Of a stretch of DNA of 64,000 nt, positions 1,569-49,762 are shown piece by piece. The stretch is from Shigella phage SHFML-26. Location of the stretch: the sequence record KX130862; one strand, 5' to 3'. A program made the translations under genes and the position numbers. How positions within the stretch are numbered: position 1 is the stretch's first letter; the number at the start of each line of letters is the position of its first letter. The notes beneath the pieces were generated by a model, which worked only from the letters and a program-made list of their open reading frames with translations, had not been told where the DNA came from and searched no databases.

Positions 1569-2507
1569 TTATTTAAATTGTTCAGTAACGTCTTCAACTA
1601 CTTCGTATTGGCAGGTACGCATTTTAGCATCGTTGTAATCAATCGGAATTGATACTACATCGCGAGGATGAACTTTAACTTTTACAACTCGGCTGGTTGA
1701 ACTACCAAAGTGACGAATATAAGATTTAGAACACACATGCAGACCGCGAGAACAAGTCTGTGTATCATCGTCATTCACACGAGTACGTGGCATTTTAACT
1801 ACTTTACCCGGACTGTTATCAAAGGTGTTTGAGTGACAGTCAAAGTAATTGCTGCGAACTACTTTCCAAGCATAGAAGTAGCCATCTTCTGTAATTTCAA
1901 TATCGTTTGCTACCAAGAAATCAAAGAGTCGAGATACCGCTTTTTGGCTTGGGTTTTCCAACAGATTTTCCAAGAACGGAAAATAAAATTCAAAGTTTTC
2001 GCCTTTTTCCATCGAGTCAAGAATACGATCAACCAAACCAGACCGCAATTCAATATTTTGATAGAACAAGCTTCCACCTTCAATTCGAACATCGCCGGAA
2101 ATATATTTTTCAACAGCGCGACGAACATTAATTTTTTGTGCAGCTTCTTCCAGCTTATCTGCTACAAGCAGATTAAGAATTTCCTGGAAGTTTGAATGAG
2201 TATTAGGAGTTGCGTTATAAGTTACACCGTCAACAGTAATTGAAATGAATTTTTTAGATGCATTCCAAATAATGTCAGATTTAGCAACTGGAGCAATAAC
2301 TGCATCGCTATTAACTTTAACTGTAATATCACCGCTAATAGTAACTTTAGGGCGTTTAGCTTCTTCAGCATTTTTCAAAACACGACGGATTGTGTCAACC
2401 GATACATCCTTCCAATAAGCCAATTCCTGTTGGGTGTAATTACCACTTGAATACAGTTTAACAATTTCAGCTTGTTCGTTTTTGGTCAGGCATTTAATAT
2501 TGTACAT
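1569..2507 (-). CDS. rIIB: rIIB protein (312 aa)
   Basis: 312-aa ORF directly downstream of rIIA; sequence recognised as T-even rIIB. Confidence 0.9.
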   Translation of the reverse strand: MYNIKCLTKNEQAEIVKLYSSGNYTQQELAYWKDVSVDTIRRVLKNAEEAKRPKVTISGDITVKVNSDAVIAPVAKSDIIWNASKKFISITVDGVTYNATPNTHSNFQEILNLLVADKLEEAAQKINVRRAVEKYISGDVRIEGGSLFYQNIELRSGLVDRILDSMEKGENFEFYFPFLENLLENPSQKAVSRLFDFLVANDIEITEDGYFYAWKVVRSNYFDCHSNTFDNSPGKVVKMPRTRVNDDDTQTCSRGLHVCSKSYIRHFGSSTSRVVKVKVHPRDVVSIPIDYNDAKMRTCQYEVVEDVTEQFK

Positions 2508-2518
2508 AATTTTCCTTA

Positions 2519-4696
2519 TTAGGCCGCAAGGGCCTTCATAGTTTTAGCGATTTGAGAAACTTCATCATCACTTAAAGAGTTGCGATAACCGATGAAGTCG
2601 GAAACAATACGGAATTTCTTGGTAAACTCAGCAACCATTTTATCGCTGTTTTTTGAAGCATTATTTGATAATACATCAAAAAGATTAGTTACTGTCCAGA
2701 TGTCATGACCGATGGTATCTTTTCCACCATTAAAATATACGCCCCGTAATGAACTAACCATATTAGCGAGTCGTGTATATTCTTCAGAAACTTCATCTAT
2801 ACTGAAGTACTTCATCATAAAATCTAACTCAGGATACTTGATAATTTTATCAATATATCGTTTAGCTGAACTTGAATAACCTACATACTTATCATAATCT
2901 ACATCATCAAAAGCATCTACATATAAATCACGCAAAGCTTCAAAAATACATTGGCACTGACCGAGTTCTTTTACCTTTTTCTGCAAAAGCGGACGAATAA
3001 CATAAAATTCATTAATGCCAATAAGATTAGCCATACGAATCAAAATATTCATAGATGGATGACAAAGAGATGTAGTACCATCCATAGAGAAAATATCAGA
3101 ACGATGCATATACGCTACATACCCAGTAATTTCATCTGCTTCTGATGTGAGCGTAAATAATTCCTCTTTTTCCCAGCGCCCGTCTTTAATTTCAAACTTA
3201 AATGCTGTAGCAGCTTTAGGACGAGGAGCTTTACTTTTAACTACCTTTGGAATATAACTTTTTACTAAAGCTTCAATTTCTGACAAATAATGAATGTTAA
3301 CTTCATCACTTTCAAACATCGCCATAATATCAGGGAGTAAATCAATCTGCGATTCTACTTCTGGATTAATAAACAGAAGACGTTCGTTATGATGAATATT
3401 CAAAGTGTTATTAAATTCACTATCATCTAACGCTCGTGCTAATCCACGAACAATATTAACACGATTTTTAATATTATCAATAACGATATTAATTTTTGTT
3501 GTATTAATACCAAACAGACGATAACTTGATGCAACGGCTGAAGTTTCATGACTTTGCTTAATGCGCTTCAGTCGAGGGTCAAGATTTACTTCATACACAA
3601 CTCCTGCATTGCATAACTTACTATCAGGTTCAAACATGCTTTGCATCTTCTTATATGACAGATTTTTAGTCGTAAATTTGACTGAATTACTAATCATATA
3701 ATCTCGAGCAGAATACCCCATCTTCATCAATTCACGATATGTGTGACGAGGAGATGTAGATTCTTTAAATCGTTTTACATCTTCATTAAATGCTTTCTCA
3801 CTGAGTTCTTTAACTCGTTCAATAATATTTTTACGAGTGCGATCATCCAGTGAAAGAGCCTCGCGAGATGGAGCAATATCAAGTGAACCCATTGGAAACT
3901 TAATGTAATTCACTTCATTGCGAATGCTTAGCCAGTTACGGTCTCTAATAACACCATCAATAGGATAAACAATACCGCCATAGATAGCATATAATCCACC
4001 ACGATCAGGCCAGTATCTTTCTGGATTTACACCATAATAATCATCAAAATCAGGAAAATAATCAATTTCGCGGTCAAGACCATTAATGATAGCCAAATCT
4101 TTGAACGGTCGCATGATATAAGAAACTTCATAAGCAAAGTTTCTAAAATCTTTTTCTTCAACTGGAACTACGATTTCAATACCAGTTTTATCATCTGGAC
4201 CCATTTCTTTTACGAATGTAGGTTTAATCTGTGGGCCATCACCATCCATGTAAGCTACATAACCACGAATTTCACCTTTATGATACGAAGTAATACTAAA
4301 CGTATCAGTATAACTAAACGGAGATTTAGAACCTAAACCAAATCCGCCAATAAAGTCATTAGATTCAGCTTTAGATGAACTGAAGTATGAATTATACAAC
4401 CCAGGAGAATTATCATCACCTTGAATATCAAAATCACTCATACCCGGACCAAAATCTCGACAAACAAATCGCGGATCTAAACGTCCAGGAACTTGTATAA
4501 TAAATTTTTCAGGATTTCCATTAAGTGCATGAGCATCAATCATGTTAGTAATCAATTCACGGACTACTGCGCGAATCTTGTTTGTATACAAATCAGATGA
4601 CAGAATTTTAAATACTTTAGGAGATGCTGTGATGCTAAATGCTTTTGATTTAGAACCATTACCAAGAATTGTTTCTTTTTCAGTAGTGATAATCAT
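2519..4696 (-). CDS. rIIA: rIIA protein (725 aa)
   Basis: 725-aa ORF, recognised rIIA sequence and length. Confidence 0.9.
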
Positions 4697-7121: not shown

Positions 7122-7489
7122 TCAAATTTAATGGCTTGAAGGAGACTAATAATTCTCAAGCGACTTCCTTCATCTTTAACTGTAAAAGAAAGAGGGTCAC
7201 CAGACTTCATAGTGATAGTGCATTCAAAATCAAAATCTTCGGGAACTTCTTCGAAGAAGTCAAATTCTTCATCATAAATTAAAACTTCACTCCGAAGACT
7301 GTGAAGAATTTTTCCGTCATTTCCAGATGCTGTACTAATCATTGTAACATTATTACCTTTCATATCTTCAACGATAAATTCGCTTGTAGATATTACATTA
7401 CTAATAGAACCATTCCTATAAATAGCAGAAAATAGATATTTCTTTTCTTCACCTTCGCGAATGCGATATTTCTTACCAATTTTAAACAT
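7118..7489 (-). CDS. hypothetical protein
   Basis: ORF track; 4-nt overlap with upstream gene. Confidence 0.5.
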   Translation of the reverse strand: MFKIGKKYRIREGEEKKYLFSAIYRNGSISNVISTSEFIVEDMKGNNVTMISTASGNDGKILHSLRSEVLIYDEEFDFFEEVPEDFDFECTITMKSGDPLSFTVKDEGSRLRIISLLQAIKFE

Positions 7490-10834: not shown

Positions 10835-11076
10835 TAAATTTTCCTTGCTAAATCGCGAATTTGACCTACAGTATAGTCTTGAATATAAACTTTATTAATA
10901 GGCTCATCAATAAATTTTGCCATAGATTCAATGTCTTTTTGTATCTCTTCAAGACTGTATACTATCTTTGAAGCTTTTTCGCGAATAGTAATATTTTCAG
11001 GACCCGGATTTTCTTCAATGACAGCTTTAACATTTGTCATAAGAGATTTAAACTGGTACCAACTCAATTCAATCAT
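10834..11076 (-). CDS. hypothetical protein
   Basis: ORF track. Confidence 0.45.
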   Translation of the reverse strand: MIELSWYQFKSLMTNVKAVIEENPGPENITIREKASKIVYSLEEIQKDIESMAKFIDEPINKVYIQDYTVGQIRDLARKI

Positions 11077-17498: not shown

Positions 17499-17735
17499 TT
17501 AACCACCTATTTCTGTAGGCGTAAACATTGCAGCATTCTTAGTTTTCCAAGTTGCTGCATCGGAAACTACATCAGAATAAGCTGCTTTTTCTGAAGGAAA
17601 GATTTGATAATGAGAATCTGCAATACGGTGTTCATTTGAATATACATCAAATGCTACAGAAACTTCCATACCTTTAACTTCTTTGCCTTCACCCGCTGGA
17701 TGAGTAAAGGTCTTGATGTTAACGAAACCACCCAT
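17499..17735 (-). CDS. soc: small outer capsid protein Soc
   Basis: 78-aa ORF recognised as Soc; late promoter TATAAATA upstream; terminator downstream. Confidence 0.8.
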   Translation of the reverse strand: MGGFVNIKTFTHPAGEGKEVKGMEVSVAFDVYSNEHRIADSHYQIFPSEKAAYSDVVSDAATWKTKNAAMFTPTEIGG

Positions 17736-17766
17736 AATAAACTCCTTTATTGTTTAATTACAGGTG

Positions 17767-17774
17767 TATTTATA
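17767..17774 (-). promoter_or_regulatory. T4 late promoter TATAAATA upstream of soc
   Basis: Exact TATAAATA on minus strand ~30 nt before soc start. Confidence 0.6.
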
Positions 17775-17944
17775 TCAGTCTTCAATGAAAACTTGTGCCA
17801 GGAATTCGTGTTCATCTTGAATTTGTTTATATAAAGCCATTACAGCATTTATATTAGAGCTATCTACTTTAAGTTGATAGGCATACCACTCGTATAAATT
17901 AATTAAAGCTTTTTGTCGTCTAATAAATTCTTCTTTGGATATTT

Positions 17945-18145
17945 TCATTTTGAATGCTCTATAATTAATTTTAAGGCTTCTTTACTGACAAAAATTTCAT
18001 CAAGACCTTCTTCTACACCCCAATCAACTACACGAAGCTGATTAGATAAGAGCTCGTATGTGAGCTCCTTGTCATAATTTTTAAATAGCTGGTCAATACG
18101 TTTCTTGTGGGCTTTCTTAAGCTGGCGTTTATTTAAACGAGCCAT
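17945..18145 (-). CDS. hypothetical protein
   Basis: ORF track. Confidence 0.4.
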   Translation of the reverse strand: MARLNKRQLKKAHKKRIDQLFKNYDKELTYELLSNQLRVVDWGVEEGLDEIFVSKEALKLIIEHSK

Positions 18146-18663
18146 TAATAACCTCGGTCTTGACGAGCGAAGTTTTCAGCATTTTTCAGATAATAAAGTT
18201 TAAAGATTTCTTCAGCCGTAAGACCGAGGCCTTGGAACATGTTCAGAACGAAATGAAGAATATCAATCATTTCGAATTTAATTTCCAACTGGTCTTGTGG
18301 AGACAAATCAGTAATCAGAGTTTCACGTCGTTCACCATGTTGAGCTTTCCAAGGCTTCCATACAGCAGATGCATCTTTTTCACCATTGCTCATACCACCA
18401 AGAGAAGTCAATAGTTCGCGGAATTCATCATCAATATAATCTTTCTGATTACGCAGCCAATCAACAACTTCACCCGCAGTAGCCAAATCATCAGGATGAC
18501 GGTTATATTCAGGTTTATCTTTAGCTAAACGAACCTGCAGAGATTTCTGCATATCAAGCATAACTTGCAACGGGTCTTTTTCATCACCGAGAATATCCCA
18601 GTATTCATTTTGAGCTTTATCAGCGCCTTCAATCAGTTGTGAACATTCATTAAAGTATGCCAT
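18145..18663 (-). CDS. 56: dCTP pyrophosphatase (gene 56, MazG-like)
   Basis: Start moved to ATG at 18661-18663 (MAYFNECSQL) behind AAGGAAA; 172 aa. Confidence 0.8.
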   Translation of the reverse strand: MAYFNECSQLIEGADKAQNEYWDILGDEKDPLQVMLDMQKSLQVRLAKDKPEYNRHPDDLATAGEVVDWLRNQKDYIDDEFRELLTSLGGMSNGEKDASAVWKPWKAQHGERRETLITDLSPQDQLEIKFEMIDILHFVLNMFQGLGLTAEEIFKLYYLKNAENFARQDRGY

Positions 18664-18734
18664 TATTTTTCCTTTCAATTCATGGGTTAGTAGATTAATT
18701 ATACAATAAATATATAAAGCAATAAGGAGGATAT

Positions 18735-18935
18735 ATGGTACAAAAATTAATGGCACTTGTTAATGCCATAAAAGGTAATAAAAAACGTATAGCTTTTACT
18801 ATTTCTGCTATGGTAGGAATTTTACTCTGGAATTTTGTTTTATCACCAATTGCTATTGCTCATGGTGTTAATATTCCAGTAATTACTCTTGATACATTCG
18901 TAGATTTAGCATTTGCTTTAGTTGGGTTAATTTAA
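18735..18935 (+). CDS. small hydrophobic membrane protein (66 aa)
   Basis: Only convincing plus-strand ORF; AGGAGG SD 6 nt upstream of ATG; lies between genes 56 and 61. Confidence 0.4.
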   Translation: MVQKLMALVNAIKGNKKRIAFTISAMVGILLWNFVLSPIAIAHGVNIPVITLDTFVDLAFALVGLI

Positions 18936-19960
18936 ATCTTAGCGTATTTAGATAGCCGCATTTTAGCCATCAACCCTTGGGCAATATTATTTTTCATATA
19001 TTCCATAATTTGTTTAGGGGTTGCACCTTCCTTTCTAATCATATCATTAACATCTTTTGATTTCCAGGGAGATTTATCCCAAAACATAACCCTTTCTCCT
19101 GCATCAACTAATTTAGTCATTCGTTTAATAGTGTCAGGGTGACGAGGTTCATTATCTAAAACCCATACACGTCTATCTTTAAATGGAACAATTTCTAGGT
19201 CTAATTGACCACCCGTAATAGCTATACCATTTTCAATAAAAAGTGAATCTATAGGTCCTTCTAGAACATATACATCACCATCTTTGACTCGTTCGACTCC
19301 ATAAATTTTTGTTGCCTCAGGATAAGCTTTGATGGTGATATATTTTTGAGGAGCATCTTTCTTTAATGCACGTCCTTGAAAAGACTCAGCTTTTCCGTTA
19401 GCATTATAAATTGGAATAACAAGACGAGGCTCAGGTATTTCCTTTTTATATGTTCCTGGCGCTATACTATTAACTAATTTAGGCCATTCGGTTGTAAACC
19501 AAAGATATTTCCATTTATCCTTTGGAATACAACGAGCTTTTACATATTTTATAATTGGATGGTCTTCCGCCAGTTTATCTAATCTAATGCATGACGGAAG
19601 AGATTTAATTATTTTCTTCTCAGGTTGTTTAGGAAGTTCTTTAGGTTTTTCTACTGGACGACTTTTACCTTTTTCCTTTCTTATTTCAAAGATATACTCA
19701 CGATATAAATCAGGTTCAAACTCCTTTAAATATATTCCGATTGGTGCATGATAGTTACAGTTATAACAATGAATATTTCCTTCATTATTATCGCCATAAT
19801 ACCATCCACGGGCTTTATTTTGGTCGGTTTTTGAATCTCCACAAACAGGACATCTAAACCGTAATTTAAAAGTTGAACTATTATTTACTTGTGTGAATTT
19901 AGGTAAATGAGCTAATGCACGGTATGCAAACTCATTATCAATCCAAGGTATTGATGACAT
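18932..19960 (-). CDS. 61: DNA primase (gene 61)
   Basis: 342 aa; N-terminal zinc ribbon CPVCGDS...CYNC; Toprim-like core. Confidence 0.85.
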   Translation of the reverse strand: MSSIPWIDNEFAYRALAHLPKFTQVNNSSTFKLRFRCPVCGDSKTDQNKARGWYYGDNNEGNIHCYNCNYHAPIGIYLKEFEPDLYREYIFEIRKEKGKSRPVEKPKELPKQPEKKIIKSLPSCIRLDKLAEDHPIIKYVKARCIPKDKWKYLWFTTEWPKLVNSIAPGTYKKEIPEPRLVIPIYNANGKAESFQGRALKKDAPQKYITIKAYPEATKIYGVERVKDGDVYVLEGPIDSLFIENGIAITGGQLDLEIVPFKDRRVWVLDNEPRHPDTIKRMTKLVDAGERVMFWDKSPWKSKDVNDMIRKEGATPKQIMEYMKNNIAQGLMAKMRLSKYAKI

Positions 19961-32412: not shown

Positions 32413-34095
32413 TTAAACCATTACAGTAAATCGACCAACTTTCTTCATTTGAAGATGCTGACCATATGCTTGCGGGTCGTGGTCTCTATGTGAAATAACA
32501 AAAACATTAGTATTTTTTAAACTATCTAAAATAGTTGAAATAGCTTTTACACCTTCAACATCGGTTGCTGAATCAAAAACTTCGTCAAGAATTAACGTGT
32601 TTATTTTAACACCTGAAACTTTTTCAGCAATATCACGCCAAGTAAATAAAAGAGCAATATCAATTCGTGCTTTTTCGCCTTGACTGAATGAAGCATAACT
32701 AAAATCTTCACGACCGCGGGATTTAATTGTCTCATTAAATTCTTCATCTAATGTAAACACATAATCCGCTTCCATTATTTTAAGATAATGGTTAATCTGC
32801 TTATTAAATAATGGAATGTACTTTTTAATAATAGCACCTTTAATACCAGAATCTTTGAGCATATCAGTCAAAATTCCTCGGTGGTATTTTTCCATTACTA
32901 AATTAGTTTTTGTCTTAACAATTTTATCAAGTTCTTCTTGAAGCAGTGCTATTTCATCAGCATGGTCAATAAACTCGGATGATGCTTTTTCTATAGCTGC
33001 TTTAACTTTTTTAGCTTTATCTACAGTCGTGATTAGAGATTGCTTTTTATTGCGAATATCATTCGCCAACGTCTGCTGAGTTTTAATATTATCTCGGTAT
33101 TCATCAACAAGAACTTTTAAATTATCACGATGTGTTGAAAGCTGTTCAAACGAATGCGTACATTCAGAAACTTTATCTTTAATTTTAGAAACAACTTTAT
33201 CACCGGAACTCAATTGTGACAAACAGGTTGGACATAATCCACCTTCGTGATACATATTAATGACTTTATTATACGAGTCAATTTTTGATTTAATTAAAAC
33301 TGCTTCTTGACCGATTTTATTAAATGCATCAGTCGGGTCTTCATCTAAAACAATATTAACTAATCTTTCATTAGCTTTTTCTATTTCCGATTTTAGCGTT
33401 CTAGCTTCTTTTGCCAAATCATCATACATATTTTGCAGACGAGTAAGATTGTCACCCGTTAATTTTTTCTGGCGTTCAACGTTATCATTATATATTTTAA
33501 TTTGTTGGATAATACTATCTTTTTTAACGTCAAGCACTTGGTTTTGTGAATTTAATTCACGTATTAGTGCTTTATTAAGCTTATCCATTTCAGCTAATGT
33601 TCCTACCTCAAGCAGGTCTTCCACAAGCTTTCTTCGCGCAGGGGTCGACAAACCCATGAAAGGGGTATACCCTGCTGTACCAAGGACAACAATCTGCTTG
33701 AAACTGGCATATGACATTCCGATAAGCTGTTCAAATTCTGCTTGGAAATCTTTACTGCTGGCAGATTCATTAAGACGTGTACCGTTAACGGTGATTTCAA
33801 AAACGTTCGGTTTTTGTCCTCTTTTGATATAGTACTTTTTCTCATCATATTCCATCCACAGTTCAACTAAAAGTTCTTTCTTATTTGTGCTGTTTATTAA
33901 TTGGCCTTTCTTTACATCACGAAATGGCTTGCCAAAAAGCCCAAATGTGATGGCTTCTAACATAGTAGACTTACCACCGCCATTTCGTCCAGTAATAAGA
34001 GTTTTTTGAACCTTATCTAATTGAATGTCAACTCCATTTTGACCAACTGACATTATATTTTTATATTTTACTCTATTAAGTTTAAATGATTTCAT
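32413..34095 (-). CDS. 46: recombination endonuclease subunit gp46 (SbcC/Rad50-like ATPase)
   Basis: 560 aa; Walker A GRNGGGKST, coiled-coil middle, CPTC zinc hook, signature and D-loop at C-terminus. Confidence 0.9.
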   Translation of the reverse strand: MKSFKLNRVKYKNIMSVGQNGVDIQLDKVQKTLITGRNGGGKSTMLEAITFGLFGKPFRDVKKGQLINSTNKKELLVELWMEYDEKKYYIKRGQKPNVFEITVNGTRLNESASSKDFQAEFEQLIGMSYASFKQIVVLGTAGYTPFMGLSTPARRKLVEDLLEVGTLAEMDKLNKALIRELNSQNQVLDVKKDSIIQQIKIYNDNVERQKKLTGDNLTRLQNMYDDLAKEARTLKSEIEKANERLVNIVLDEDPTDAFNKIGQEAVLIKSKIDSYNKVINMYHEGGLCPTCLSQLSSGDKVVSKIKDKVSECTHSFEQLSTHRDNLKVLVDEYRDNIKTQQTLANDIRNKKQSLITTVDKAKKVKAAIEKASSEFIDHADEIALLQEELDKIVKTKTNLVMEKYHRGILTDMLKDSGIKGAIIKKYIPLFNKQINHYLKIMEADYVFTLDEEFNETIKSRGREDFSYASFSQGEKARIDIALLFTWRDIAEKVSGVKINTLILDEVFDSATDVEGVKAISTILDSLKNTNVFVISHRDHDPQAYGQHLQMKKVGRFTVMV

Positions 34096-34110
34096 TTTGT
34101 ATCCAATTGT

Positions 34111-34965
34111 TCACAATGAAGAAAATTCTTTAACTAAAGCCTGTAATGAAGCCTCTATTGGATATCCATTCTTAACTAACATTTTCCTAAACATCACATG
34201 TTTAGGACGATTATATGATATCCACAATTCATACAATTTATCTTTATTATCCCAATGATAGCCTTTTCGTCGAGATGCTATATGAGCTTTTCTAATCTCC
34301 GGATTTTTCCAACTAGCAGCTACTGAATTTGATATAGCTATTTTATATTCAGGTTTTGATAAAGCAGCACGAACAGCCTTTTGGTGTTTAATTTTATTTT
34401 CTTCGTTATTAAACCATTCCCTTGAAGCCATTGAAATTTTTTGTTTTGTTTTAAAATTATTTAATCTTTCTTTGTTATCTTTCCTATTTTTTGCTACTGA
34501 AAAATATTTTAATGCCCTTTCTCTAGCAGCATTTCTATTTTGCGGATTTGAATAATATTGTTGAAGCCTTTTTGATATTGTGTCACTTACATCTTGTTTT
34601 ATAAAACTATATTCAGCAGCTATTAAATCAACTTCGGCTAAAGATAAATTTTTATATGTTTTTCCTGACATCATTCTATTTAAAGCATTTAGCATTTTTC
34701 CATTTTTACCTTTTGCTAATAAGAAATGTGCTTTAAAATGATTAAAATGACTTAAATTAACTAAATTCCATGTAGATTTTAAATATTCAGGAAATATTGA
34801 TTTAGGAAGCACGTGATGTGCTTCCGTTTTACCTGGAGTTTTAACAGTTGAATTCATAGAAATAAAATTAATGTAAGACTTGGCGTCTTCTTCACTCAAC
34901 GCTAATTTTTCAACTAATTCCTTTATTAAAAATTCATCATTAATGTCAAGTTTAAAATTCTTCAC
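34111..34965 (-). CDS. free-standing HNH homing endonuclease
   Basis: HNH-like motif (EAHHVLP...NLVNLSHFNHF); GTG start at 34963-34965 behind AAGGAA; inserted between 46 and 47. Confidence 0.65.
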   Translation of the reverse strand: MKNFKLDINDEFLIKELVEKLALSEEDAKSYINFISMNSTVKTPGKTEAHHVLPKSIFPEYLKSTWNLVNLSHFNHFKAHFLLAKGKNGKMLNALNRMMSGKTYKNLSLAEVDLIAAEYSFIKQDVSDTISKRLQQYYSNPQNRNAARERALKYFSVAKNRKDNKERLNNFKTKQKISMASREWFNNEENKIKHQKAVRAALSKPEYKIAISNSVAASWKNPEIRKAHIASRRKGYHWDNKDKLYELWISYNRPKHVMFRKMLVKNGYPIEASLQALVKEFSSL

Positions 34966-42149: not shown

Positions 42150-42620
42150 TTAATCATGTTTCCACACCCCATCGGTATTTGACCAAAGTCGCTGATTATC
42201 TGATCCTCGCCACAGCTTTTTAGTCGGAAGATTTTTCTCATACTTCCCATCAATAATAACATCAACATATTTAAGCATTTCTAGCTGTTTAATATCTTCA
42301 AACTTATATCCTGTCCACAACCAAATGCTTTTATTGGGATAAAGATTTTTAATAGTTTGAACCACAGAGTGAATCACGTCTCTGTTATCAGGATAAAGAG
42401 GGTCTCCTCCAGTTATAGTTAATCCTTCTATATAATCATTATTCAAACATTCAATCAATTGTTCTAGTGTTTCACCGGTGAATGGAATACCATTTCTAGC
42501 ATTCCATGTTGATTTATTATAACACCCTTCACATTTATGCAAACAACCTGTAACGAAAAGAACAGTTCTGCAACCAGGGCCATTCACAAAGCAGCACGGG
42601 TATATTCTGTCATAATTCAT
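42150..42620 (-). CDS. nrdG: anaerobic ribonucleotide reductase activating protein NrdG (radical SAM)
   Basis: Cys-rich radical-SAM-like cluster; start moved to MNYDRIY (ATGA overlap with upstream gene). Confidence 0.8.
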   Translation of the reverse strand: MNYDRIYPCCFVNGPGCRTVLFVTGCLHKCEGCYNKSTWNARNGIPFTGETLEQLIECLNNDYIEGLTITGGDPLYPDNRDVIHSVVQTIKNLYPNKSIWLWTGYKFEDIKQLEMLKYVDVIIDGKYEKNLPTKKLWRGSDNQRLWSNTDGVWKHD

Positions 42621-43447
42621 AATAATATCCAATTTTTCCAAGCTTCATCAGTAGAATTACAGCGTTTTAGTATAAGATGTCTAGAAACTTTTATGGCATT
42701 TGAGCACTTTTTAATTGAATCATATTTAATACCGTCAACTGAAACGGTTTTGCTAGTTGGAGAAATTTTTCCATACATTGGATTTTTTGAACCAACTTGA
42801 AGTCCTTTTAAAGCTTTTGAAAGCTTTTGTCTAGATTCCAATGACATGGGAGAATTCTTTTTACCTTCAATAATTCGCTTGCGATGAAGTTCGCGTTCTT
42901 CTTCACTCAAAGAATTGTAATATTTTTTAACACCGTTTGATATAGATAATTTATCTTTCTCAGACCGCTCTCCAGCTAATTTACTTCTAACATCTTTTCG
43001 CTTCATAGCTATGCTTACGGCTTTATTTAAATTTGCTTGATGCTCTGGCGTACGTTTATATTTCTTTAAAGCACGTGAAATAGCTATTTTAGTTTCTTCT
43101 GTTCTCTTTTTACCTTTATTTGCTAAACTATTTTTGTGGCGATGTTCAAGTGTCTGTTCATAGGCAGTTCCACCTTTTCCACCAGGTTTAATATTATATG
43201 TATTTTCTTTTAGACAATACTCTTCAGTTACAAGTTCAGCTTCTTTATCATACATTTGCTTTTCATTATCAAAAACATATAAAATTTCTTTATAAAAATT
43301 TTTTCTACCATATTTTAATAAAGCAGCACGAATCAATGTTCCTGATCCCATATAACCGTCATTTATATTATCGGTGCTATGCGCACCGATATATTCCTTT
43401 GAATTAATTATATTTGTTATTTTATAAATTATATAATACCTATGCAT
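42617..43447 (-). CDS. free-standing GIY-YIG homing endonuclease
   Basis: N-terminal GIY-YIG motifs (YYIIYKITN...EYIGAHS...YMGSG); overlaps nrdG start and nrdD end. Confidence 0.7.
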   Translation of the reverse strand: MHRYYIIYKITNIINSKEYIGAHSTDNINDGYMGSGTLIRAALLKYGRKNFYKEILYVFDNEKQMYDKEAELVTEEYCLKENTYNIKPGGKGGTAYEQTLEHRHKNSLANKGKKRTEETKIAISRALKKYKRTPEHQANLNKAVSIAMKRKDVRSKLAGERSEKDKLSISNGVKKYYNSLSEEERELHRKRIIEGKKNSPMSLESRQKLSKALKGLQVGSKNPMYGKISPTSKTVSVDGIKYDSIKKCSNAIKVSRHLILKRCNSTDEAWKNWILL

Positions 43448-45257
43448 GTTTTACTCGTTTTACCATTTCTTTCATTTTACCTAAATTCCATGGAACAACG
43501 CTAGGAGTTCCAAGATATCCGCATGTTCTTCTTATTGTATTCATCTTTTTAGGATCAGTTTCTCCACAAATAGAACAAACAAATCCGTTTTCAGTAGGAG
43601 TCATTTCATGGGTACTTCCGCATGTAAAACACTTATCTACTGGCATGTTAACACCAAAATAATCTAAATGTTGTACAGCATAATCCCATACAGCCTCAAG
43701 ACCTTTTAGGTTATTTTTCATATCAGGAAGTTCAACATAAGAAATGTGACCACCTGTCGCAATGAAATGATATGGCGCTTCACGAGAAATTTTTTCAAAC
43801 GGAGTAATATTTTCTTCTACTGAAACGTGGAAACTATTAGTGTACCAGCCTTTATCGGTAACATCTTTTACACTTCCATATTTTTCTGTATCAAGTTTAC
43901 AGAAGCGATAACAAAGGTTTTCAGCAGGAGTCGAATATAAACTAAAAGCAAATCCAGTTCTTTCAGTCCACTGTTTAAGATGAGCATTCATTTTAGTTAA
44001 AATTTCTTGTCCAATATCACGACCGACAAGAATATTCAATTCGTGAATACCAATGTATCCTAGGGACACTGAACTTCTACCATTTTTAAATAACTCAATT
44101 ATATCGTCATCAGGTTTAAGACGAACCCCGAATGCACCTTCTTGGTAAAGAATAGGAGCAACAGTCGCTTTAACTCCTTTTAAGGAACTAATTCTACACA
44201 TCAAAGCTTCAAAACATAAATCCATTCGTTCATTGAATAATTCAACAAATTTCTGTTCATTGAACTGTGTTCCAATATAAGAATCTAACGCGATGCGAGG
44301 AAGATTCAGTGTTACAACACCAAGATTATTACGTCCATCAAGAATTTCATTACCAGTCGAATCTTTCCATACGCTCAAGAAACTACGGCAACCCATTGGA
44401 GAAACAGGAATAGATGAACCAGTGATAGCTTTATTGTTCTTAGCTGAAATAATATCAGGATACATTCTTTTGCTTGCACACTCTAGAGCAAGCTGCTTAA
44501 TATCATAGTTCGGATCGTCTTTATAAAGATTAACACCTTCTTCAACAAACATAACAAGCTTAGGGAAAATAGGAGTTATCCCATCACGACCAAGACCTTT
44601 AATACGATTTTTCAGAATTGCTTTCTGAATCATTCGTTCAGTCCAGTCAGTTCCTGTACCAAATGTAATTGTTACAAAAGGAGTCTGTCCGTTTGAACTA
44701 AAGAGAGTATTTACTTCATATTCATAAGCTTGGAATGCATCGTATACGTCTTTTTCTGTTTTAGATTGAGCATAATTTAACGCATCAGCGATTTGCCATT
44801 TTTCTGCATCCTCAATATGTTTTGCATAGGTGCGTTTAACATAAGGAGAAAGTACTTTATCTACATTAGCAAAAGTCGTTCCGCCGTATTGGTGAGAAGC
44901 AACCTGTGCAGTAATTTGTGCCATAATTGCAGTAGCAACGCCAATTGATTTAGGAGTTTCAATCTGCGCATTACCTAGCTTAAATCCGTTCTCAAGCATT
45001 CCTTTTAAATCTACTAAACAGCAATTAGTAAATGGAAGAGCAGGGGAATAATCAATATCGTGGAAATGAATAATTCCGCTTTCATGCGCTTTCATAATAA
45101 AAGACGGGACCATATTTTTGGCAATGTGTTTAGACACAATACCAGCCATAAGGTCCCGTTGAGTTGGAAAAACACGAGAATCTTTATTAGCATTCTCGTT
45201 TAAAAGGTCTTTATTAGTTTTATGAATCAATCCTTCAATTTCTTTTTCAATTGTCAT
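43440..45257 (-). CDS. nrdD: anaerobic ribonucleoside-triphosphate reductase NrdD (intronless)
   Basis: 605 aa; C-terminal glycyl-radical region and Cys-rich zinc site; continuous ORF. Confidence 0.9.
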   Translation of the reverse strand: MTIEKEIEGLIHKTNKDLLNENANKDSRVFPTQRDLMAGIVSKHIAKNMVPSFIMKAHESGIIHFHDIDYSPALPFTNCCLVDLKGMLENGFKLGNAQIETPKSIGVATAIMAQITAQVASHQYGGTTFANVDKVLSPYVKRTYAKHIEDAEKWQIADALNYAQSKTEKDVYDAFQAYEYEVNTLFSSNGQTPFVTITFGTGTDWTERMIQKAILKNRIKGLGRDGITPIFPKLVMFVEEGVNLYKDDPNYDIKQLALECASKRMYPDIISAKNNKAITGSSIPVSPMGCRSFLSVWKDSTGNEILDGRNNLGVVTLNLPRIALDSYIGTQFNEQKFVELFNERMDLCFEALMCRISSLKGVKATVAPILYQEGAFGVRLKPDDDIIELFKNGRSSVSLGYIGIHELNILVGRDIGQEILTKMNAHLKQWTERTGFAFSLYSTPAENLCYRFCKLDTEKYGSVKDVTDKGWYTNSFHVSVEENITPFEKISREAPYHFIATGGHISYVELPDMKNNLKGLEAVWDYAVQHLDYFGVNMPVDKCFTCGSTHEMTPTENGFVCSICGETDPKKMNTIRRTCGYLGTPSVVPWNLGKMKEMVKRVKHA

Positions 45258-47782: not shown

Positions 47783-48708
47783 TTCAATACCTCAATAGCA
47801 TTACGTAAACCATTTGCTTTTGCATTAAGAGCTTTTAACAATTTGGTGTGTTCTGCAATTTGGGCTTCAACTTCAATCAAACGAGCATTGAGATATTCGC
47901 GTTCTTCACTCAGATTATCAGCCTTTTCTGCTTTAGGTTCTTTTACAACTTGCTTATATGTATTAGGGTTCTTCAGTTTAATTAGAATGCGTGAACTGTA
48001 CAGCATTGAACCATTATCTTCGGTTTCGTCATACATTTCCACTACGTCCATCATCTCCACCATCGTGCAGAGTTTATAAGACAACGAACGAATAATTTTG
48101 TTGTGCTTATTAATTTCTCTAGCTGTCATGGTGCCGAGATTACGTGAGTAATAATAAGGAACCTGGATATTAATTAATACTGATGAACCACCTGGCTTGT
48201 GTGTTACTTCATCAGCAATAACCCAATCCTTAACATGAACTGTATTTGTACGGTCATCGCCCGCGGTAAATAGTTTACGAGCATGCTTAAAAAGCATATT
48301 CACTTGGTCATTGAATTGACAAGCGAATTTATCAGCAAATTTAGTTTCGGGAATGGTAGATAACCAATCAGCCAAATGGGTCCTTTTAACATCGTTAACA
48401 ATAGTAAATTCAACCAAATCGGTTATAGATGTCTCAGATTTAATGAAGCTCGGCTTCATAAAGTTTTTAATGTTATCACTAGCTACAGTAGAAGATAACA
48501 GACGAGAACGTTTAAACCATTGAAGCAAATTGCCTAACGAATGAGAATAAGCGTTCTGAGTATCTTTACAGATATGATTTTCCTGGCCAACATATTGAAG
48601 GAAATCACGAAGAATATTATTGATTACTGCCCTGTGTCCTATCTGATAATTACGATGTTTAGTAATAAGACTGTCAAAATAATCAATATAATGTTTACGA
48701 GTTTTCAT
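47779..48708 (-). CDS. hypothetical protein with C-terminal coiled coil (array member 1 of 4)
   Basis: ORF track; heptad-like tail. Confidence 0.55.
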   Translation of the reverse strand: MKTRKHYIDYFDSLITKHRNYQIGHRAVINNILRDFLQYVGQENHICKDTQNAYSHSLGNLLQWFKRSRLLSSTVASDNIKNFMKPSFIKSETSITDLVEFTIVNDVKRTHLADWLSTIPETKFADKFACQFNDQVNMLFKHARKLFTAGDDRTNTVHVKDWVIADEVTHKPGGSSVLINIQVPYYYSRNLGTMTAREINKHNKIIRSLSYKLCTMVEMMDVVEMYDETEDNGSMLYSSRILIKLKNPNTYKQVVKEPKAEKADNLSEEREYLNARLIEVEAQIAEHTKLLKALNAKANGLRNAIEVLK

Positions 48709-48760
48709 GTTCTTCTCACTTTGTTAATGGTTTATACTCCGAGCCATCCTTGGCTTTAAA

Positions 48761-49762
48761 TTACTTAATTAACTGTAAAGCTTGTTCAAGACGATCCAGG
48801 CGATTAACAGATTCTTCCCAAATCCTTTTAGCCTGCTCATATTCTTTCTGTGCTTTATTAGAAATTTCTAGAACTTCTTTATAAGCTTTTTCTAGTGCAA
48901 TAACTTCTGGACGAATTTCTATCGGTTCAGGTGAATCGTCAAGACATTCCATTAGTTCCTCAAGGGTAGTTTCTTCTTTAGGAGTATTCACAATTTCATC
49001 ACATTTTTGTTGGTAAATTTCTTTATCAGTCGGTGAGTACGCGCACTTTACTTCACGAAGACTAACTACAATTTTATATCCTTCCCAACCACCCATATTT
49101 TTGAAAGGATATGTATGAATACTTTTTACAGTTTCCATACAATCCAAAGCCGTCTCTAATTGATGAGTTATAGTGCTAGCAATTGAGAAAAATTTATTAA
49201 TATTCTTTTGGTTAGCTTCTGGTGTAAAAAATTCGTAATTCACAAAAATAGCTACTTTATTTTTATCAAGCTCATATTCTTTTACGATAATCATATCAGA
49301 AGCCAAAGGATGAATTTGACGATAATCGCCATAACATAATTTAGAAGCTGATTTTAGAATTTGTCCTTTAAAAAGTCTGAAATTACTAATCCAACGACGA
49401 GTAAAAATATTCTTAGGGTCTTCTTTGATATTAAGATGATAAGAATTAACATCACCGAACCAATTGTATCCTATTACACCTTTAGTTCGTTTAATTTCTT
49501 TCCCAAAATTATCAAGAATATCCCGATTAACCAAATATGAAAGAAGACGAGACCCTTTAAAGGTTTTCTTGATAACATCTTTATCTACACGGCTAGAAAT
49601 TTTACGAATTTCATGAATAAATTTAGTAGAAGAAACAATACTTGCATCAATACTACTGAGCCATTGATTGATAATAGAAAGAACAGCGTTCTGACTAGAC
49701 ATGGGTTTAACTTTATCATCAATAACCCTATTGAATGATTTGATATATTCGTTACGAGTCAT
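48761..49762 (-). CDS. hypothetical protein with C-terminal coiled coil (array member 2 of 4)
   Basis: Start moved to MTRNEYIKS behind GAGGAG because early promoter -10 overlaps track start. Confidence 0.55.
   Translation of the reverse strand: MTRNEYIKSFNRVIDDKVKPMSSQNAVLSIINQWLSSIDASIVSSTKFIHEIRKISSRVDKDVIKKTFKGSRLLSYLVNRDILDNFGKEIKRTKGVIGYNWFGDVNSYHLNIKEDPKNIFTRRWISNFRLFKGQILKSASKLCYGDYRQIHPLASDMIIVKEYELDKNKVAIFVNYEFFTPEANQKNINKFFSIASTITHQLETALDCMETVKSIHTYPFKNMGGWEGYKIVVSLREVKCAYSPTDKEIYQQKCDEIVNTPKEETTLEELMECLDDSPEPIEIRPEVIALEKAYKEVLEISNKAQKEYEQAKRIWEESVNRLDRLEQALQLIK

Follow-up and report, generated by a model that had tools for sequence, protein, structure and literature searches.

The lone plus-strand reading frame between genes 56 and 61 of a T4-like phage: a probable ortholog of T4 dam.1 predicted to encode a late inner-membrane protein

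Why does one small open reading frame (ORF) run against the direction of all the other genes of a T4-like early region, and is it a gene at all? The question is raised by an ORF of 66 codons found at 18735..18935 on the plus strand of the window, by which we mean the whole stretch of 64,000 nucleotides that was analysed (Shigella phage SHFML-26, sequence record KX130862). The phage has a Tequatrovirus genome, and region 18100-19400 is 97–99% identical to hundreds of such phages. The ORF starts with ATG and stops with TAA, and it lies between two genes of the minus strand, gene 56 (dCTPase/dUTPase, 172 aa, 18145..18663) on the left and gene 61 (DNA primase, 342 aa, 18932..19960) on the right. 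The start of gene 56 was taken as the homologous ATG at 18663 (the ORF listing ran on to an upstream GTG). With this start the gap between the two genes measures 268 nt, against the roughly 270 bp given by an earlier sequence-only reading of the window, and only 71 nt separate gene 56 from the ORF. At the other end, the stop codon of the ORF and the stop codon of gene 61 overlap convergently by 4 nt (TTAA, 18932..18935, both strands). The ATG is the first possible start, because an in-frame TAA stands just 5' of it (18723-25), and 4 nt before it there is a Shine-Dalgarno (SD) sequence, AAGGAGG (18724..18730, plus strand), containing the AGGAGG that the earlier reading had pointed out. That reading had also called the ORF the only convincing plus-strand gene in 64 kb, and two observations agree with it. 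A gap analysis of the 64-kb window gave no second plus-strand ORF of at least 40 aa lying mostly outside minus-strand ORFs, and the RefSeq annotation of PhiZZ6, a close relative, lists 127 CDS over the first 63.5 kb and puts a single one of them, the dam.1-type gene, on the plus strand. The product is, as had been stated, a hydrophobic protein of 66 aa (GRAVY +1.25), and the transmembrane check that had been proposed for it showed a single clear hydrophobic stretch covering about residues 19-42. The description of the ORF in the sequence-only reading is correct in every particular.

The ORF is an already catalogued hypothetical gene and is ordinary for the genus. In the independently sequenced T4T record (HM137666) it is gene dam.1, with the product “hypothetical protein Dam.1” (ADJ39749.1), and in RB32-type records the same ORF is named RB32ORF030w. 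Its residues 2-66 match the phrog_2024 profile over positions 1-65 of 65 (E 5.4e-31). The 66-codon ORF is also intact in T4 (17738..17938) and in T2, inside the gap between dam and gene 61, which the RefSeq records of both phages leave unannotated (NC_000866 17626-17934 and NC_054931 16552-16838, respectively). Because both annotations omit the ORF, omics studies that build on the T4 or T2 RefSeq annotation are blind to the gene. One of the most intensively studied genomes thus has a small blind spot, and it is the only plus-strand gene in an early region of about 64 kb. Our literature search found no paper dealing with dam.1, RB32ORF030w or phrog_2024, and nothing on transcripts, ribosome profiling, proteomics or genetics of dam.1; a dam.1-type gene goes unmentioned in the T4 reviews and in the paper on fPS-2.

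The distribution of the ORF was followed by tblastn, which located it in 691 phage records, near full length and intact in 685 of them. About 500 of these records had identities of at least 90% (Tequatrovirus) and about 190 were near 50% (Mosigvirus and others). A scan of IMG/VR added 7 further loci only, all from close relatives, and with the family HMM neither the window nor the LF73P3 genome yielded a paralog. In several genera, i.e., in Dhakavirus (WG01), Marfavirus, Kanagawavirus (Q7622, PEi26) and Gaprivervirus, the very same slot is taken by a second and more divergent type of the protein (MGTxFYQIWKL...LWNLLVVPxAAxQG...), and all types of the small ORF match phrog_2024. In the Gaprivervirus VR25 the two types stand in tandem with 8 nt between them (2995..3192 and 3201..3401 of the extracted locus, L004). 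VR7 has a truncated second copy and VR20 a split one, suggesting redundancy where both types are present. The position tail-to-tail with gene 61 is found again in T4, T2, ST0, VR25, WG01, Marfa, Q7622 and PEi26, and the convergent overlap of the stop codons has been kept in all the genera examined (4 nt in most of them, 24 nt in Q7622). At the corresponding locus of RB49 (Krischvirus), genes 56 and 61 are 14 nt apart and there is no such ORF. The gene is therefore not universal among T4-like phages, and because of its absence from the RB49 locus we regard it as specific to the T4-like family (Tevenvirinae plus Marfavirus).

The pattern of substitutions is that of a coding sequence. By the Nei-Gojobori method dN/dS was 0.19–0.30 in Tequatrovirus and 0.13 in Mosigvirus, and between genera it ranged from 0.17 to 0.43 where dS could still be estimated. 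In most pairs from different genera the synonymous sites were saturated (pS 0.65–0.93) and the protein could be aligned end to end. Among ten diverse members M1, W32, N33, P38, G44 and P48 were invariant, and A40, V50 and G64 nearly so. The proteins of the family (61–69 aa) share the core motif W-N-x4-P-x-A-x3-G-x3-P, to which the protein of the window conforms. These data bear directly on the reading that there is no gene here, and that the stretch has been conserved merely as the 3' untranslated region or terminator of gene 61 together with the promoter region of gene 56 or dam. The ORF does contain a terminator-like hairpin of the minus strand downstream of gene 61 (18740..18769), with an 8-bp stem at 18769..18750 (-8.4 kcal/mol) followed by a T-run at 18749..18740, the hairpin being embedded in codons 2-12; the fPS-2 record has a minus-strand terminator annotated at the homologous place. 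The lack of annotation of the ORF in the T4 and T2 RefSeq records points the same way. However, we looked for this terminator across genera and had to reject its general conservation, the hairpin being confined to Tequatrovirus members, whereas the frame is open in 685/691 records and in seven genera that are 17–54% identical, dN/dS stays below 0.45, and the SD and the late-promoter box described below are conserved. A noncoding role for the whole stretch is thus extremely improbable; as far as sequence comparison can tell, noncoding conservation cannot explain the combination of dN/dS values and invariant residues. The synteny comparison with relatives that had been suggested as a check came out in favor of a gene: by these comparisons, the dam.1-type ORF is a conserved gene under purifying selection. 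We consider it highly probable that the ORF and T4 dam.1 are orthologs, and that the T4-like phages have here, tail-to-tail with the primase gene, a small accessory gene whose product would be an inner-membrane protein made late in infection.

The assignment to the late class comes from the region just upstream. A late-promoter-like box, AATAAATA, is located at 18705..18712 on the plus strand and ends 22 nt before the ATG of the ORF. Late promoters of T4 have the consensus TATAAATA, which spans -13 to -6. Of the 50 T4 late sites listed in PMC2988020, 32 are perfect and 9 carry A at -13, and A or T is usual at this position in other T4-like phages (PMC1524935). The A at -13, which is the commonest variant of TATAAATA, is the sole deviation of the box in the window. 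From this spacing transcription would start near 18718, giving a leader of 17 nt. The ATAAATA core is found 14–23 nt 5' of the ATG of the first gene in all orthologs, over seven genera with unrelated flanks. The box reads GATAAATA in T4 and T2, AATAAATA in ST0 and WG01, CATAAATA in VR25 and PEi26, and the perfect TATAAATA in Marfa and Q7622, and every ortholog has an SD-like GGAG or GGAGG element. No box precedes the second gene of the VR25 tandem, which is evidently co-transcribed with its partner. What the sequence-only reading had termed a near-late promoter is, therefore, a common variant whose core has been kept in all seven genera.

The distribution of the heptamer within the window adds to this. 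Each strand of the 64 kb has just 4 copies of ATAAATA, a strong depletion, and all 4 minus-strand copies (17773, 21076, 45764 and 58796) are just 5' of an SD-ATG combination. Three of them belong to soc, sp (21076) and the endonuclease VII gene 49, the names being taken from the PhiZZ6 annotation, and the fourth to a 70-aa ORF that by its position is just upstream of rI. The probability that an ATAAATA would fall by chance within 30 nt of the ATG of the ORF is about 0.002. In the early region of the window the heptamer alone comes close to being a detector of late genes. Elsewhere, an exact TATAAATA was seen at 7417-7424 (plus strand). It is internal to an early gene of the minus strand and is followed by neither an SD nor an ATG, and it may be a late promoter making only antisense RNA.

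The box has to be seen together with the elements of the opposite strand. The consensus of T4 middle promoters, with its MotA box, is well established, and a MotA-type middle promoter of gene 56 could be recognized on the minus strand at 18698..18722 (TTGCTTTA-11 nt-TATAAT, read as the reverse complement). Its T4 homolog is TTGCTTAC-12-TATAAT, the fPS-2 record has the homologous 23 nt annotated as “predicted middle promoter”, and in the T4 record oriA, with its primer transcript, is assigned to the gene 56 promoter region. In the window the late box is nested in the spacer of this middle promoter. Part of its sequence could be explained by the middle promoter, because the box is inside the AT-rich spacer. 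The arrangement differs among phages: the box is just outside the gene 56 promoter in ST0, overlaps the MotA box in VR25, and in T4 and T2 is separated from this promoter by the dam insert, at a distance of more than 900 bp. Since the box has been kept in each of these arrangements, it can be argued that late transcription of the plus strand has been selected. Where the two overlap, a competition between the late box and the gene 56 middle promoter late in infection is possible.

On its far side the ORF is followed by no intergenic space on the plus strand, and no terminator-like site was found on this strand before 23120, so that the predicted late transcript would have to run antisense into the primase gene. 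The main job of the locus could then be done by RNA: a late promoter firing against the early/middle transcription unit would make a transcript antisense to the gene 61 message and, placed as it is in this phage inside the gene 56/oriA middle promoter, would help to turn off primase synthesis or origin priming late, with the peptide as a secondary product. This reading would account for the convergent overlap of the ORF and gene 61 stop codons in every genus, for the open run of the plus strand as far as 23120 and for the location of the window box in the spacer of a minus-strand middle promoter, and several T4 sites are transcribed from both strands at different times (PMC2988020). However, an antisense role alone needs neither purifying selection on the amino acids nor residues that stay invariant when synonymous sites are saturated, the strong SD is conserved as well, and the nesting of the two promoters is not general, given the distance of more than 900 bp in T4 and T2. 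Because of this constraint at the protein level an RNA-level role cannot be the whole story, and as the main function we find it distinctly unlikely. A broader version joins the two products in a dual switch, where a late RNA antisense to primase, firing in dam-less phages inside the gene 56/oriA promoter, would be combined with an inner-membrane factor that has gone unrecognized. We regard this combination as unlikely too; if true, it would mean that the late RNA helps to bring origin-dependent priming to an end late in infection and that the peptide acts, for example, in lysis inhibition or exclusion and has been missed by classical genetics.

The varying distance between the late box and gene 56 leads to the matter of dam, which the sequence-only reading placed in this neighborhood in T4 and T2 and, on that premise, took to be absent here. 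The maps of T4 and T2 bear out this placement. In both phages dam sits between gene 56 and dam.1, T2 having in addition an ORF of 181 aa, and in T4 the dam stop codon lies directly against the MotA box that belongs to the gene 56 promoter. The absence from the window also holds, given the 71 nt available between gene 56 and the ORF and a tblastn search of the 64-kb window with T4 Dam that returned a best E of 0.8. As to a homolog elsewhere in the genome, for which a search had been recommended, we found no Dam in the complete genome of LF73P3, a relative 92–98% identical over the window, either with T4 Dam (best E 1.0) or with an E. coli Dam sequence (best E 0.11). Five segments of the window, at 10837-11066, 17505-18036, 34086-34949, 42620-43504 and 48702-49743, had no megablast match in LF73P3; presumably they are variable accessory genes or slots of mobile endonucleases.

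The dam-less layout is the commoner one. T4-type dam was found in 184 records, essentially once in each (185 places), and the contiguous arrangement gene 56-ORF-gene 61, as in the window, in 436 of 733 records. Other genera are likewise without dam at the 56-61 locus, often with other inserts in the slot, and the dam-less state is probably both common and ancestral. The slot is empty in the window (18664-18734), ST0, VR25 and WG01; it contains dam in T4, dam plus the 181-aa ORF in T2, a homing endonuclease in fPS-2, a 252-aa LprI-like ORF plus a 93-aa ORF in Marfa, a 75-aa ORF in Q7622 and a 97-aa ORF in PEi26. The Marfa insert had been considered as a candidate for a Dam-like ORF and was rejected, as it is not Dam. 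By this comparison of maps, the slot that separates gene 56 from the small ORF is a hot spot of insertion, and dam is better seen as an optional insert at a recombination-prone slot than as a fixed feature of the T-even phages. The additional T2 ORF (T2_032, 2365..2910 on the minus strand of the T2 locus L002, 181 aa) has a weak, sub-threshold Pfam match to the GATC-specific restriction endonuclease DpnII (E 0.0096, 15.7 bits vs. a cutoff of 23), and a PDB search with it found nothing. The weak DpnII match hints that the T-even dam may have arrived within a restriction-modification cassette.

We return to the protein itself. Across the family the net charge is +2 to +6 in the first 20 residues and 0 to -2 after residue 42. 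For the span at about residues 19-42 the estimated insertion energy was -1.8 to +1.8 kcal/mol, marginal to favorable on a simple scale. On the same scale the C-terminal 17–23 residues gave +4 to +9 kcal/mol, and this segment is for that reason not counted as a second transmembrane helix. The last 24 residues are hydrophobic, with a net charge of -2 and no basic residue. An AlphaFold2 model has helices at residues 2-14, 16-42 and 52-63, with moderate confidence (pLDDT 72.6). We infer from these simple scales a single-pass inner-membrane protein with the N-terminus in and the C-terminus out, its transmembrane segment being marginally hydrophobic. The invariant mid-helix Trp32-Asn33 and Pro38, together with the small-xxx-small pair Ala40...Gly44, point to helix-helix association, with itself or with a membrane partner, and a buried Asp of the second paralog type can be counted among the same features.

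The same segment can be read as a signal peptide. Residues 1-42 would then be cut after Ala40-Ile-Ala42, before His43, to release a periplasmic peptide of 24 residues. The basic n-region and the hydrophobic core would suit such a precursor, and so would the residues around the putative site, a motif that we read by eye: Pro38 at -5 is invariant, Ala40 at -3 is nearly so, residue 42 at -1 is small (A/S/T), and there is conservation of Gly44 and Pro48, which follow closely on the site. However, a core of about 20–24 residues exceeds those of typical cleaved signal peptides and resembles a signal anchor, and the Mosigvirus members have Leu at -3. A secreted peptide seems quite improbable.

With the segment taken as a membrane anchor, the course of events that we propose is as follows. 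Late in infection gp55-RNA polymerase would start transcription at ~18718, and the mRNA with its 17-nt leader would be translated into the 66-aa protein. Once this is inserted in the inner membrane, its basic N-terminus (net +5) would face the cytoplasm, a single transmembrane helix would take up about residues 19-42, and a tail of 24 residues, mildly acidic and hydrophobic, would be on the outside. The helix would act by packing on itself or on a partner membrane protein.

For the function, searches by similarity returned the family itself. A profile search over 1.8 billion representative proteins gave six matches, all of them family members or fragments; Pfam, NCBIfam and PADLOC contained no match to the dam.1-type protein; a sequence search of the PDB gave noise only (E 0.2 or worse); and Foldseek against viral models retrieved family members only, one of them with the submitter label “Holin”. 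That label, attached in UniProt to the OE5505 homolog, raises the idea of a holin or pinholin, i.e., a small membrane protein forming the holes that trigger lysis, and the small size, the late promoter and a transmembrane helix with a polar Asn and a small-xxx-small pattern are compatible with it. However, no holin family of Pfam or NCBIfam was matched at any E up to 10, and in place of the charged hydrophilic tail typical of holins the protein has a hydrophobic, acidic C-terminus; nor is the ORF beside an endolysin gene. T4 lysis requires the holin T, and t mutants fail to lyse, which counts against a second holin. The label fails two defining tests (family match and charged C-terminal tail); a holin function is very unlikely. 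The classical screens for rapid-lysis mutants of T4 are not known to have mapped a gene at the 56-61 locus, and for this reason a strong lysis phenotype can be argued against. The protein might instead modulate a late event at the envelope (lysis timing, lysis inhibition or exclusion), in an accessory and not an essential capacity, the likeliest role among those considered but one that we put forward tentatively, as possible but somewhat doubtful.

Comparison with known systems helps to place the protein. The antiholin RI, a signal-anchor-release protein, is likewise a small T4 membrane protein with a weakly hydrophobic segment rich in Ala, Gly and Ser followed by Pro, and it ranked first among the non-self matches that the family HMM gave within the genome (E 0.62). 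The pentapeptide FVLSP is common to the dam.1-type protein and the RI sequence P0037, the window's own RI having FALSP. The dam.1-type protein differs in having no globular periplasmic domain, and a relationship to RI (PF24205) was rejected (BLASTP E 0.33, hhalign probability 0.05%). Phage holins and pinholins resemble it in size, in the late expression signal and in a transmembrane helix with polar and small residues, and differ in their family match, in their charged C-terminal tail and in their position in a lysis cassette. The type I toxins (Hok, TisB, Ldr-like) share the short hydrophobic single helix and an mRNA that overlaps a transcript of the opposite strand, whereas the dam.1-type gene has no dedicated antisense small RNA and PADLOC gave no match to it. 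T4 Imm and Sp (sp is gene 61.3) are also small accessory proteins targeted to the envelope and encoded in the same genome region, and sp too has a late box (21076); in contrast to the ORF, both are on the minus strand and transcribed with the early genes, and their sequences are not similar to it. Closest is T4 dam.1. It is likewise 66 aa long and ~94% identical to the window copy, with 4 conservative differences, and as in the window it is a plus-strand gene whose stop codon overlaps that of gene 61. The two differ in the late box (GATAAATA in T4 vs. AATAAATA here) and in their surroundings, since dam stands between the T4 copy and gene 56, whereas the window copy abuts the gene 56 middle promoter. 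At the level of the family, phrog_2024 is matched by the window protein, by the second paralog type and by members from Mosigvirus and Kanagawavirus, with no difference noted.
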